Below, in pieces: positions 43,044 to 64,000 of a stretch of DNA of 64,000 nt; within the stretch, counting starts at the first letter, position 1, and the number at the start of each line of letters is the position of its first letter. The notes beneath the pieces are model-generated. The model saw nothing but the letters and a program-made list of their open reading frames with translations. It made no database searches and was not told the origin of the DNA. The DNA is taken from NCBI RefSeq assembly GCF_013122565.1, contig NZ_CP053258.1; one strand, written 5' to 3'. Origin of the DNA: Escherichia coli (GTDB lineage Bacteria > Pseudomonadota > Gammaproteobacteria > Enterobacterales > Enterobacteriaceae). The translations under genes and the position numbers were made by a program.

Positions 43044-43050
43044 GATTACA

Positions 43051-43083
43051 AGCGCATGTTATTGTTTAACATGCGCTTTTTTA
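43051..43083 (+). terminator. Rho-independent terminator of tRNA-Ser
   Basis: AGCGCATGTT-ATTGTTT-AACATGCGCT hairpin followed by TTTTTTATTT. Confidence 0.85.
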
Positions 43084-43192
43084 TTTATCCTTCCAGACAG
43101 TATGCCACCGGGTATGCCATCTGAAACCGGTTTATATGCCCCACGATCATATCTTATCGGACAATTTCCGATCTTTGAGCATACTGGCAAAG

Positions 43193-44038
43193 CTATACTG
43201 CCAGCATGTCAGGATAGTGTTTTGCGATAATATCATTCAGTCTGTCAACCAGTTCTGGCTTCCTGAACGTGATGTGCGCAGAGCCCTTCTTAAAGTATTT
43301 AATAATGAACATCTCATCTTCATAGCATTCTTTTCCCTGAAGAGACCGGATGTGATCGTCCAGATGAATAGTTATGTTTTCCCTGTTGTCGGGGATCGGT
43401 TTGCCGCTGAACAGATGCAGCATTCTTTCCAGGTCGGCAAGTCTATCTGCCTGTTGCCCGGTGATAAGATGCAATCCCCACCGGTCCCACCTCACCAGAT
43501 TGTTGACGATAATTTTATTGCCAAATTTACAGGGGCAATTGGTTTTGTAATTCCAGCTCAACCCTCTGAAGAGGTTGATCACTCCTCGCTCAAACACTTC
43601 ATCCTTATTCTGGTGTAGCTGCTCAAACGTACTCAGAATATTCTCTTCACTGATTTCCGGAAAATTATCGTACTCCAGTGATCGGTACCATGTATCACGG
43701 GCCTGTGCATCCATTAAGGAAAGCATCCCGGAGCATTGCATCAGGTCACGCCAGATTTCGCGATCGAGATTGCGGGTGATAGCTTTCATTGCTGTATCAG
43801 GTTTATCCATGAGCCAGCAGCCGCAGCGAAAATCCTGTTTCATGGCCCAGTCCAGTGCGGTTTTACCGCCAATACTTTCTGTCATTGCTGATATTTCAGT
43901 CAGTTGCCGGATAAGTGTGTCGATTTGCAGCAGTGTAGTCTTTCGCACAGCCAGAATGTGGCTGACTGAGGTGGAGCAGATAATGTCCGTATGTCCGTTG
44001 ACCACTTCCAGGCGGGAGATTGTGATATCTGACATCAT
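43193..44038 (-). CDS. Island hypothetical protein (281 aa), tRNA-proximal end of CP4-like module
   Basis: Intact ORF MMSDITISRLEVVNGHTDIICSTSVSHILAVRK...; follows YeeW-like gene in same orientation; family not identifiable by eye. Confidence 0.6.
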   Translation of the reverse strand: MMSDITISRLEVVNGHTDIICSTSVSHILAVRKTTLLQIDTLIRQLTEISAMTESIGGKTALDWAMKQDFRCGCWLMDKPDTAMKAITRNLDREIWRDLMQCSGMLSLMDAQARDTWYRSLEYDNFPEISEENILSTFEQLHQNKDEVFERGVINLFRGLSWNYKTNCPCKFGNKIIVNNLVRWDRWGLHLITGQQADRLADLERMLHLFSGKPIPDNRENITIHLDDHIRSLQGKECYEDEMFIIKYFKKGSAHITFRKPELVDRLNDIIAKHYPDMLAV

Positions 44039-44079
44039 CGTTTTTCCTTTTGGTTTATAAACGAAAACGCCAGCCCTGT

Positions 44080-44535
44080 TCAGGCTGACGTCATTGGAAT
44101 GAGACTGACGCCATAACGTCGGATGAGTGTGACAACCAGACGGCGGAACGTTTTTGACAGGCCCAGGCGTTTAAGCCGCAGAACCGGGTATGACCACGCA
44201 TCGGTACGTAACAGATATCCGCTGCCTGTAAAATGAATCCATTCTGATTCGCCGGTGTCATTCGTCTGATGCGACAGCGAGTACAGCCAGGCGTTGTCTT
44301 TTGCCGTGATATGCGCGGTACTGCAGCGTATGCCGGTCAGGGCAGCAAATGGTGGCGTGCAGTCTGTTGAGGCTCGGTCAGATTCATCAACAACACGAAG
44401 GGAGTGACCGTTATCGCAGACCACGTTAATCAGTTCAGCAAGCTCAATACCATCGACGTCAACGACAATGCGCCCCATGTTCAGTGCCTGTACGTTAACG
44501 CTGTCGGCTTCCAGCGTCAGGGCCAGTTTCATCAT
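44080..44535 (-). CDS. YeeW-like hypothetical protein (151 aa), downstream of CbtA-like toxin
   Basis: ORF MMKLALTLEADSVNVQALNMGRIVVDVDGIELAELINVVCDNGHSL...; ATG overlaps toxin stop by 4 nt; position matches yeeW relative to yeeV in CP4-44. Confidence 0.6.
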   Translation of the reverse strand: MMKLALTLEADSVNVQALNMGRIVVDVDGIELAELINVVCDNGHSLRVVDESDRASTDCTPPFAALTGIRCSTAHITAKDNAWLYSLSHQTNDTGESEWIHFTGSGYLLRTDAWSYPVLRLKRLGLSKTFRRLVVTLIRRYGVSLIPMTSA

Positions 44536-61190: not shown

Positions 61191-61577
61191 CACAACTGTT
61201 TCATGATGGGAGGTGGTAAATATGAACCATTTCAAATATAAAAGAGTGTCAGCTCTAACATAGATGCGCGATATATGTTTAGGAACAGCACCACATAAAT
61301 TTTTATGCAATGCAGACATTGCCCCACTTTATCGTCTGTTACGTTGGCAAATTTTTATAGGAATTGTTTCGGTTATGCTGCGTATTATCTTGTACAAAAA
61401 ATCTCACACTGGCAATGCCATGTCTTTTCTAGCGGGGATTTCCTCGTGGTGATTTAGGATTTGCTTTATCAGGATTTTTTACAAGGCATTTCATTACCAA
61501 CAGGCCACAAAATACAATACAAATAACAAATTGTGAATATAAAGTATTAAAGAAGCATCTATTCCCAAGGAGATAAA

Positions 61578-62399
61578 ATGTCACTCATTTGTTCTATTAA
61601 ATTCATTCAACATGAATTTAATGCATATATTTTAGATAACAACTACGCCTTCTCTGACGGTGAGGTTCTGATGGTAGATAGTGCTGTTAATTTATATTTT
61701 AAACCTTATGAACGATATTTCAAAGAAATCAAACTCAATGAAAAAATCATCAAAAGATACCTACAATACACTAACATTCAGATAGAGACAATGTCTGCTC
61801 CTACAAAGTTTTTACGTGTTTCTAATGTACCGACTGGATTGCTTAATGAAATGATTATTTATCTCAACTCGGAAGAAAATAATCATCATGATTTCTCTGA
61901 AGTTTTGCTTTTATCTTGCCTATCTATTTTTTCCGAATGCAAAGGTTTCATTACATTGCTTAATAACGGTGTATTATCCGTTTCCGGAAAAGTGAGGAAC
62001 ATTGTCAATATGAAGTTATCCCATTCATGGAAACTAAAAGACATTTGTGACTGCCTGTGCATGAGTGAAAGCTTGCTGAAGAAAAAACTAAAACAAGAGC
62101 AAACAACATTCTCACAGATTCTTTTAGATGCCAGAATGCAGCACGCTAATAAATTGATGCGGATAGAAGGCTCAGTCAATAAAATTGCCGAACAATGTGG
62201 TTATGCCAGTACATCTTATTTTATTTATACTTTCCGAAATTATTTCGGCAACAGTCCAAAGAGATTTTCTAAGGAAAAAGGTATCCACCCGCATAGCCAT
62301 CTTGCAGACTTCAGCGGTATTCTGCAGACGGATGCGAACGCTGGGTTCATGCCCGCAACAAGAACCATGGTGTGCATGTCCGCACGCCGTCGGCGCTGA
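61578..62399 (+). CDS. AraC-family regulator of the Rns/CfaD/AggR fimbrial-activator type; 3' end apparently fused to IS66-derived sequence
   Basis: C-terminal dual HTH ...LSHSWKLKDICDCLCMSESLLKKKLKQEQTTFSQILLDARMQHANKLMRIEGSVNKIAEQCGYASTSYFIYTFRNYFGNSPKRF... resembles Rns; tail ...HLADFSGILQTDANAGFMPATR... resembles IS66 TnpC; RBS AAGGAG. Confidence 0.75.
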   Translation: MSLICSIKFIQHEFNAYILDNNYAFSDGEVLMVDSAVNLYFKPYERYFKEIKLNEKIIKRYLQYTNIQIETMSAPTKFLRVSNVPTGLLNEMIIYLNSEENNHHDFSEVLLLSCLSIFSECKGFITLLNNGVLSVSGKVRNIVNMKLSHSWKLKDICDCLCMSESLLKKKLKQEQTTFSQILLDARMQHANKLMRIEGSVNKIAEQCGYASTSYFIYTFRNYFGNSPKRFSKEKGIHPHSHLADFSGILQTDANAGFMPATRTMVCMSARRRR

Positions 62400-62900
62400 C
62401 GGATGAAGCACTGAAAGGGGTCTGTGGGATGTATACCAACGAGTCGGAAATAAAGGGAATGCCGGCGGAGTAACGTCTTGCTGAATGTCAGCAGAAAGCG
62501 AAACTACTGCTGAAATCCTTGGAAAGCTGACTGCGTGAAAAGATGAAAACCCTGCCACGACACTCAGAACTGGCGAAAGCGCTCGTGTACTGGCGATACG
62601 AATGGAATGACGAGGCTGCCTGTCAGTCACAGGGAGCTTTTGGCACAAAATCAACGGAAAGGCCGCCAGCACTGGAATTAAGTTGTACTGTCCCCGTACT
62701 GGCAAGCCATACCCGGAACAACCTCACCGCAAACTGCGCCCGGGAGCAACCATTACAGCCTCTGCACTGGATTTGCAGCCCCGGCATCTTTCGGCGGTGC
62801 CTCCTGCCGTTCTCCATCTCTGCTGTATACCCCAGCACTTCTGAGCCTCATAATCTTCGTCACACATCACACAAAACCACTTTCTCATTTCACCATATAA
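62290..62900 (+). pseudogene. Second degenerate IS66-family transposase (tnpC) remnant, same orientation as the first
   Basis: Frame-shifted translations ...FSGILQTDANAGF..., ...VHARNKNHGVHVRTPSALTDEALKGVCGMYTNESEIKG..., ...MKTLPRHSELAKALVYWRYEWNDEA... parallel the remnant at 53790-54790 motif by motif. Confidence 0.6.
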
Positions 62901-63049
62901 TCCGGAACCGTCATGCCCTGCAGATGCAAACGACGGGCCTCTTTCTCTACCATGTCAGGCCTGGTGCATCGCAGGAGGATTTTCTCAGCGACAGTTATCT
63001 GGTCATGCTCAAATCACGGCGGTTGTCCGTCATTGCCCCGCTTAAGTGT

Positions 63050-63420
63050 TAATGGATAACCACAGAACACGTAGCACATAACGTCCTGGCGGCTGTGCTT
63101 CGCGGCTTCTTTCGCTGTTACAAAATGACCTTTGCTGTCATTTGTCATATAACAGTTCAGAATTCATATATTTCCTCCTGAGTTGTCCGGGGAATACTGC
63201 ATCCTCCGGTCTGGCAGTGTAGGCAGTACCGCTCCCCATAATAATCGTGGCGACATTGTCTGCAGTGCCAGCTGGCTTTACGCACCACGGGTAAGGCATT
63301 CGGTATCAATTGCTGTAAGCGTTTAATCAACTGTACTTTACTGCGTTCCGGTCTGACATGAGGGCACTCGTGACCATGCTCAGTCAGCCATTTGACGGTG
63401 TGTTCAAATCAGCGACGTTC
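63050..63420 (-). pseudogene. Zinc-finger ORF fragment, possibly a transposase/mobile-element remnant (low confidence)
   Basis: Minus-strand translation ...HECPHVRPERSKVQLIKRLQQLIPNALPVVRKASWHCRQCRHDYYGERYCLHCQTGGCSIPRTTQEEIYEF with CxxC-x9-CxxC; upstream frame broken; family not assignable by eye. Confidence 0.3.
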
Positions 63421-64000
63421 AGTATCGTATTCCGGATGGTATTTGAGTGCACTAGCGCAAGGATGGCCGGTGTAGCGATCGCAAGGTGCGGTCTGTGCAG
63501 TACGGGCATCAATCAGACGATCATTCCCTTTGAAAGCGATAAAGTTTTTTGCGTATATAGTGTAGTTCCTTACCGCCAGACGACACGCAGACGTTAGCCG
63601 TCCCGCTACGGGTAGCGTGGTCAGGGTGTGAATGGCGGATTAGTGAAGTGTTATCAAAAGGAGGTAAAGTAAGCCGGTGCAGTCTGTCGTTATTGTTGCG
63701 TGGTTGTCACACTATGGGGCACTGACGTAAAAAATAATCGACATCTGCGTCGTGGCCCCACGTCAGTGAATTCGGGGGACGTTGATACAGCCAGACTGCT
63801 GAGCTCTGGTCACTGACGGATACCAACGTGTCGTAACGTACAGGGACCGGAGATTTACCTGCTCATACCGCTATGAACGTTCCACTAAAGGCGATATAGT
63901 TCTTATAAACCACTTATCAGCAGATACGAGTAACACCGTTACCGCGCTGTCGTGGCCTGCCTCTGTTACTTTTCTCCGGTACCGTACTTCGCCCCACAAT

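Follow-up and report, generated by a model that had tools for sequence, protein, structure and literature searches.

The 64,000-nt window analyzed here, i.e., the whole stretch of Escherichia coli DNA taken from contig NZ_CP053258.1 (assembly GCF_013122565.1), holds a mosaic, horizontally acquired island at the 3′ end of the tRNA-Ser(GGA) gene serX. We conclude, with a probability of roughly 0.9, that positions 43,044–64,000 are the tRNA-proximal two-thirds of a single integrative island of the SRL-PAI / OI-43/OI-48 (SpLE1) / PAI-serX family (PAI, pathogenicity island). That its mobility functions seem to be missing follows from the position of the window's edge, which cuts the island, and from the place of the integrase gene (int) at the tRNA-distal end. 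A preceding sequence-only reading had correctly described a mosaic island at serX, and had explained the lack of a visible integrase by rearrangement or decay. We regard the island as an ordinary, partly decayed member of its family that is cut by the window, with mobility functions that lie beyond the edge and are probably inactivated.

The left flank of the insertion site, ghrA-ycdX-ycdY-ycdZ-csg, is the same as in K-12, and the tRNA gene is therefore serX. The K-12 serX region aligned at 98.6% identity up to position 43,047, i.e., four nucleotides that match by chance beyond the tRNA 3′ end, and no further, which confirmed that K-12 synteny stops at the serX end. Three features mark this junction, among them the left copy of the attachment (att) site.

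42956–43043, plus strand: serX, tRNA-Ser(GGA) (ARAGORN; Rfam tRNA, 53.8 bits), the integration target, intact after insertion
43030–43043, plus strand: attL core CCCCCTCACCGCCA, the final 14 nt of serX and left copy of the direct repeat
43050–43088, plus strand: island-borne intrinsic terminator with a 12-bp stem, a 5-nt loop and a T-run (hairpin 43050–43078)

The native serX terminator stands directly after serX in K-12 and after the right att site (attR) in the island's relatives; at attL, the island's own hairpin takes its place. In genomes with an empty site, the base at which alignment to the ycdU side begins is precisely the first one of the 14-mer. The tRNA was the sole RNA match in an Rfam scan of the window.

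The window contains neither a tyrosine recombinase nor a second att copy, as had been stated before. A tblastn search with three tyrosine integrases against all 64 kb gave a best E value of 0.39. With up to 3 mismatches allowed for the 23-nt serX end and up to 2 for the 14-nt core, both matched the tRNA only. We followed the island to its far end in three complete genomes (PapRG-06-5, A30 and JNE23-001) and in one draft, GCA_001264195.1. The full 22.5 kb from 41,500 to 64,000 occurs in three of 5426 complete E. coli genomes, at 99.6% identity in PapRG-06-5 and at 98.3% in A30 and JNE23-001; GCA_001264195.1 was closest, with 5 mismatches in 13,959 nt (99.96%). In all four collinear relatives the island extends ~10.4 kb past the equivalent of position 64,000. 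Each of them carries int and attR at the far end. In the closest relative these map ~9–10 kb past that position, with int at ~73.05–74.25 kb and attR at ~74.4 kb in window-equivalent coordinates. From attL to attR the island measures ~31.4 kb in the closest relative; the versions in A30 (31.7 kb) and PapRG-06-5 (32.9 kb) are slightly longer, and the window holds the first 21 kb. The earlier suggestion that the mobility genes might lie beyond the window is thus supported. Nor is an att repeat missing altogether: each collinear relative has its 14-bp copy past the equivalent of the window's edge.

We observed this 14-mer, identical to CCCCCTCACCGCCA, at the far ends of PapRG-06-5, A30, JNE23-001, GCA_001264195.1 and O157:H7 Z866. 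In the relatives it stands ~150 bp outside the integrase start codon and is followed by the native serX terminator. The 23-nt serX 3′ end, which had been proposed as a probe to define attR, finds no repeat even in the island of a complete relative. The true repeat is 14 bp long, with a run of five rather than seven C residues; because it is this short and lies outside the window, the 23-nt search could not detect attR.

Downstream of the window, the relatives carry in order YagK/YfjJ, debris of the insertion sequences (IS) ISL3, IS3 and IS256, YfjI (DUF3987), an AlpA-family helix-turn-helix (HTH) gene, a 614-aa open reading frame (ORF), int and ycdU. The AlpA-like gene adjoining YfjI encodes 74 aa (PF05930, Phage_AlpA), the 614-aa ORF is divergent, and the P4-family tyrosine integrase, composed of Arm-DNA-bind, Phage_int_M and Phage_integrase domains, reads inwards. 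The beginning of this right arm is still within the window.

62753–64000, minus strand: right backbone arm, comprising two zinc-ribbon pseudogenes (62753–63148 and 63157–63558) and the 3′-terminal 84 nt of a YagK/YfjJ-family gene (63917–64000) that is cut by the window edge

We infer that in this genome the ~10 kb adjoining the window's right edge match those of the relatives. The AT-rich blocks that had been noted are real (31–35% GC as against 52–56% in the backbone), but they do not follow the island as separate cassettes, since the backbone resumes at 62,753–64,000; they are cargo inside one attL–attR unit.

Three side observations concern this end of the island and its target. The divergent ORF between the AlpA-like gene and int (605–614 aa; L001, 29735–31579, and L007, 2742–4559) is conserved among this island, O157:H7 and UM146, and had no match in PADLOC or PHROG. 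In GCA_001264195.1 (L021, 4225–4933), a 709-bp IS200-like element with a 152-aa Y1 transposase sits 7 bp outside the attR core; it falls in the native serX terminator region and is absent from A30 and PapRG-06-5. Between serX and ycdU (L002, 3480–4066), K-12 has three tandem ~181-bp units annotated in RefSeq as RtT small RNA. Since every unit closes with the 19 nt that form the serX 3′ end, together with the terminator, the 14-bp att core is available four times at the empty K-12 site. One RtT-type unit is retained after attR in JNE23-001.

All ORFs between 43,193 and 53,521 are on the minus strand and hence read towards serX, as had been described for a CP4-like module at this position. We list the left backbone arm from the tRNA outwards.

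43193–44038, minus strand: DUF4942 protein, 281 aa, left-terminal island gene (Pfam PF13708, E = 2.3e-70)
44080–44535, minus strand: DUF5983/YeeW-like ORF, 64% identical to K-12 YeeW, second gene from the tRNA
44532–44906, minus strand: CbtA-like toxin, 90% aa identity to K-12 CbtA (RefSeq name on near-identical records)
44996–45364, minus strand: CbeA/YeeU-like antitoxin, 89% aa identity to K-12 CbeA (RefSeq name on near-identical records)
45385–45666, minus strand: YeeT-like DUF987 gene, frameshifted after codon 63, 94% identical to K-12 YeeT
45729–47039, minus strand: YeeS/RadC-like JAB protein (97% to YeeS), YafX-like antirestriction protein (67% to YafX) and a second small antirestriction-like ORF
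47039–47917, minus strand: DUF932 protein (YafZ/YfjQ-like), 75% identical to K-12 YafZ (RefSeq annotation)
47947–49841, minus strand: four backbone ORFs (312, 136, 71 and 48 aa) with no assigned function, 98.6–100% identical to A30 orthologues
49845–50552, minus strand: HTH-WYL regulator, 235 aa (PADLOC WYL profile, E = 3.6e-18)
50767–51642, minus strand: YfjP/YkfA-like GTPase, last gene of the left arm (NCBIfam small_GTP above cutoff; Pfam MMR_HSR1 on the identical product)

From CbtA/CbeA through DUF987, the RadC-like JAB protein, antirestriction and DUF932 to the GTPase, the CP4-type block follows the K-12 order, at 60–97% aa identity to CP4-44 and CP4-6. CP4-44 counterparts are 89–97% identical to the window's proteins, and matches to YkfG, YafX and YafZ of CP4-6 are 67–82% identical. 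The gene next to the tRNA had been described as a YeeW-like or hypothetical end; the gene that adjoins the tRNA encodes the DUF4942 protein, and the YeeW-like ORF comes second.

A toxin-antitoxin/DUF4942 end at the tRNA together with a distal, inward-reading int is the standard arrangement of this family, as seen in O157:H7, UM146 and CP4-6, and the term "rearranged" is therefore not supported. The island could nevertheless have been inverted or otherwise rearranged, or stripped of its mobility module, and thus be a non-canonical, orphan CP4-like remnant at serX. Such a reading would account for a window without integrase or att repeat and for its pseudogenes and IS debris, and the integrase is indeed inactivated in the closest relatives. 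We consider it very unlikely: the genes are arranged collinearly with those of islands whose integrase is intact (A30 and JNE23-001) and also with those of O157:H7, UM146 and CP4-6, int and attR lie just past the window equivalent in all collinear relatives, and the layout needs no inversion breakpoints. A30 and JNE23-001 carry an intact integrase and the att repeat in the canonical arrangement, which removes the anomaly that the absence of an integrase had seemed to present.

The reading as a serX-family island cut by the window also agrees with what is known of its relatives. OI-43 and OI-48 of O157:H7 are flanked by perfect 14-bp repeats, TGGCGGTGAGGGGG, i.e., the last 14 bp of serW or serX (PMC3064760); this sequence is the reverse complement of CCCCCTCACCGCCA found here. 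The Shigella SRL-PAI has the very same repeats, and its int and the P4-family int of OI-43/OI-48 are 99% identical at the nucleotide level (PMC3064760). Precise excision of OI-43/OI-48 occurs at ~1e-3 to 1e-4 per cell (Bielaszewska et al., PMC3064760), and int is required for the excision of SRL-PAI (review, PMC7545054).

The O157:H7 islands OI-43/48 (SpLE1; tellurite resistance and adherence, serW/serX) have in common with the present island the serX 14-bp target and a DUF4942-terminated left end, and with its relatives the 14-bp direct repeat; O157:H7 Z866 shows YfjI, the HTH gene, a 605-aa ORF and int adjoining ycdU, as in this island's relatives. They differ in cargo, with ter, ure and iha in ~87 kb as compared with a ToxR-like pair and rare fimbriae in ~31 kb here, and from the present lineage also in int, which in this lineage probably bears an 11-bp deletion. 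The SRL-PAI of Shigella flexneri (serX) has identical 14-bp repeats, a near-identical P4-family int and int-dependent precise excision (PMC3064760, PMC7545054). It comprises 66 kb with antibiotic-resistance and fec cargo, and we liken it to this island via the literature and the OI-48 integrase only. Extraintestinal pathogenic E. coli islands of the PAI-serX type (UM146, UTI89 and CFT073; genomic island GEI I of Nissle), catalogued as serX PAIs in PMC7545054, join serX in the same way, their left 4.9 kb being ~96% identical, and UM146 also carries this integrase module at its tRNA-distal end. They differ in length (62–113 kb) and in their cargo of S/F1C fimbriae, salmochelin and Ag43.

K-12 CP4-6 at thrW has the same topology: the tRNA on the plus strand is followed by YkfI/YafW, YkfH, YkfG, YafX, YafZ and YkfA reading towards it, then by cargo, and YagK/YfjJ and intF stand at the far end, as in this island family. 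It differs in the tRNA target and in having an integrase of an unrelated subfamily (IntF gave a 54-aa local match only). In CP4-57 at ssrA, the integrase adjoins the RNA gene.

From these comparisons we propose the following course of events. The P4-family integrase, encoded ~150 bp from attP, would recombine attP with the last 14 bp (CCCCCTCACCGCCA) of serX or serW. Because of the orientation of the att core relative to int, integration would place int at the tRNA-distal end, reading inwards, next to the 14-bp attR fragment and ycdU. The opposite end would then abut the intact tRNA and supply it with a new terminator, with the DUF4942, CbtA/CbeA, RadC, antirestriction, DUF932 and GTPase genes reading towards the tRNA. 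The excision factor is probably the AlpA/Rox-type regulator encoded next to YfjI. The cargo sits where such islands usually have it, between the GTPase and YfjJ; here it comprises the ToxR-like pair and, between IS66 remnants, the fimbrial operon with a ydeO paralogue. With the int deletion, the island would no longer be able to leave its site, except with the help in trans of a related integrase, and further change would presumably come through deletions caused by IS elements or through exchange between homologous sequences.

The state of the integrase was observed directly in the relatives. That of A30 is intact, with 404 aa and 95% identity to the integrase of the O157:H7 serX island, and that of JNE23-001 is intact as well. 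In GCA_001264195.1 and several related assemblies, int has an 11-bp deletion, GGGATTTTCGC, at codons 350–354, which shifts the frame and results in a 363-aa product without the LAH motif (361–363) and the catalytic Tyr373. In PapRG-06-5 the frame is broken in the same way, and an IS3 has also inserted into the part of int that encodes the Arm domain. The description as decayed hence holds for int in the closest relatives, but not for A30 and JNE23-001. Judging by these alleles, int of the source lineage most probably carries the 11-bp deletion and has lost the catalytic tyrosine. Decay within the window comprises the frameshift in the YeeT-like gene, the two zinc-ribbon pseudogenes and a truncated ydeO paralogue. 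The int family as a whole (at least 90% nucleotide identity) is present in 1265 of the 5426 complete E. coli genomes.

Three observations count against our conclusion or narrow it. That int and attR are present in this genome at all, and in what state, is deduced from relatives, the closest of which is 99.96% and not 100% identical. A 291-bp deletion, which took the 3′ end of the YeeW-like ORF and the adjacent DUF957 gene (junction at ~44,097–44,102 by alignment to a relative), sets the window apart from PapRG-06-5, A30 and JNE23-001, and the lineage hence has private changes. Moreover, the left 4.9 kb recur at 99.6% identity in an otherwise different island, that of strain 100181. From the sequence comparison this is evidence that backbone modules have probably been exchanged between islands by homologous recombination, and "one element" therefore describes a structure and not necessarily one acquisition. 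As a side observation, strain 100181 also has the ~44,097–44,102 junction in common with the window, and its island differs beyond the DUF932 gene.

The heterogeneous make-up of the island could alternatively reflect tandem accretion, i.e., at least two elements that arrived successively at serX, a CP4-like remnant and then an int-bearing element with the AT-rich cargo. The strongly heterogeneous composition, the IS66 remnants that flank the fimbrial block and the left 4.9 kb common to otherwise different islands would fit such a history. Yet neither the window nor the complete A30 island has a third, internal copy of the 14-bp core (up to 2 mismatches), and we hence see one attL–attR unit and not a tandem array. 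The stretch from 51.7 to 62.7 kb likewise yielded neither a degenerate att site nor a second integrase remnant in these searches. In addition, the arm from the GTPase to DUF4942 and the arm from int to YfjJ jointly make up the full CP4-6/OI-48 backbone, with cargo in the same slot. We therefore rate successive insertion as extremely unlikely.

The junction between serX and the island's left end is common, with 1176 of the 5426 genomes (~22%), and one might ask whether the stretch belongs to the conserved core of E. coli and is by chance missing from K-12. The chance of this is close to nil, as the serX–ycdU site is empty in most genomes, the whole 22.5-kb stretch is limited to the three complete genomes mentioned above, and the stretch is bounded by att repeats beside a tRNA and an integrase.

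Beyond annotation, a single island of the SRL-PAI/OI-48/PAI-serX family at this site is of little significance, and its novelty is confined to the rare combination of cargo. It illustrates that a tRNA island scored as integrase-free on a fixed window may simply have been truncated by that window. For the SRL/OI-48 family at serX or serW, as for CP4-6, the integrase is to be expected at the tRNA-distal end, and the 14-bp att repeat of the serX/serW family is too short for a 23-nt search. The island may also serve as a small example of an element that would be locked in place by an 11-bp deletion removing the catalytic tyrosine of its integrase.

Several genes of the left arm deserve a closer description. 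The DUF4942 protein is 99.6% identical to its A30 orthologue and gave a weak PHROG match to a DNA methyltransferase family. In the YeeT-like gene, 63 of 73 aa align, and the NCBI annotation pipeline PGAP calls the gene frameshifted in a relative that is 100% identical here. Orthologues of the YeeS/antirestriction block in A30 are 94–97% identical. The 136-aa backbone ORF matches phrog_8968, and the 312-aa ORF (47947–48885), although 100% conserved in A30, had no match in Pfam, NCBIfam, PHROG or PADLOC. The gene of the HTH-WYL regulator is intact in the window and frameshifted in PapRG-06-5. We considered anti-phage defence as a function of these ORFs and of the AT-rich gene pair described below, and did not retain it, as PADLOC gave only the WYL regulator and a weak LeoBC-like match of the GTPase.

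The cargo occupies the slot between the GTPase and YfjJ, which is also the cargo slot of CP4-6 and OI-48. It contains AT-rich stretches at ~52.0–53.5 kb (31–35% GC), 54.5–56 kb (32–34%) and 61–62 kb (34%).

52168–53521, minus strand: cargo 1 (31% GC), ToxR/CadC-type regulator of 290 aa (52649–53521) and a 162-aa partner ORF
54179–54769, plus strand: IS66-family transposase remnant, left bracket (PGAP annotation mapped to the window)
55993–61190, plus strand: cargo 2, intact four-gene chaperone-usher fimbrial operon (NCBIfam; Pfam FimA, PapD, Usher and Fimbrial)
55993–56550, plus strand: fimbrial major subunit
56619–57329, plus strand: fimbrial chaperone
57354–59957, plus strand: fimbrial usher
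60042–61190, plus strand: two-domain tip adhesin, 382 aa
61578–62237, plus strand: diverged ydeO paralogue, AraC family (NCBIfam YdeO, 442 bits, profile positions 1–240 of 253)
62241–62605, plus strand: second IS66-family remnant, right bracket (mapped annotation)

The ToxR-like regulator of cargo 1 matches the CadC and PhoB winged HTH models of NCBIfam and Pfam Trans_reg_C, and its gene overlaps that of the 162-aa partner by 8 nt. The partner had no family in Pfam, NCBIfam, PHROG or PADLOC. Homology of the pair to YqeI/YqeJ was considered and dismissed: the winged HTH is 30% identical to that of K-12 YqeI, the partner has no similarity, and the organisation alone is alike.

The fimbrial operon was found in three of the 5426 complete E. 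coli genomes, two from baboon and one human isolate. Its 382-aa adhesin forms a single cluster at 90% identity with 34 E. coli sequences; among 5.8 billion proteins, the next homologues are only 31–35% identical. The N-terminal domain had no sequence match in the PDB. A structure model of moderate confidence (predicted local distance difference test score, pLDDT, of 68) matches the tip adhesins CupB6 and FimH, and this predicted fold supports the designation as a two-domain tip adhesin and nothing narrower. A rare fimbrial operon with such an orphan adhesin is of possible interest for work on host-specific colonisation.

The ydeO paralogue is 85.5% identical at the nucleotide level to the core ydeO gene, which encodes an acid-stress regulator, and scores above the NCBIfam equivalog cutoff; the second IS66 remnant cuts it at about codon 240. 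Its divergence suggests an origin in a different lineage or species and arrival along with the fimbrial operon. The two IS66 remnants are in direct orientation, 74–89% identical to each other and 8080 bp apart, and their position on either side of the 8-kb fimbrial/ydeO block is consistent with IS-mediated capture. The cargo is the one unusual part of the island. It is conceivable, although we consider it rather doubtful, that the fimbriae have a new receptor specificity, are regulated by the ToxR-like pair or the ydeO paralogue, and were captured into the serX island by IS66. In related assemblies the fimbrial operon has been lost and an IS3 is found in its stead, which parallels the IS-mediated internal deletions described for OI-48 (PMC3064760).

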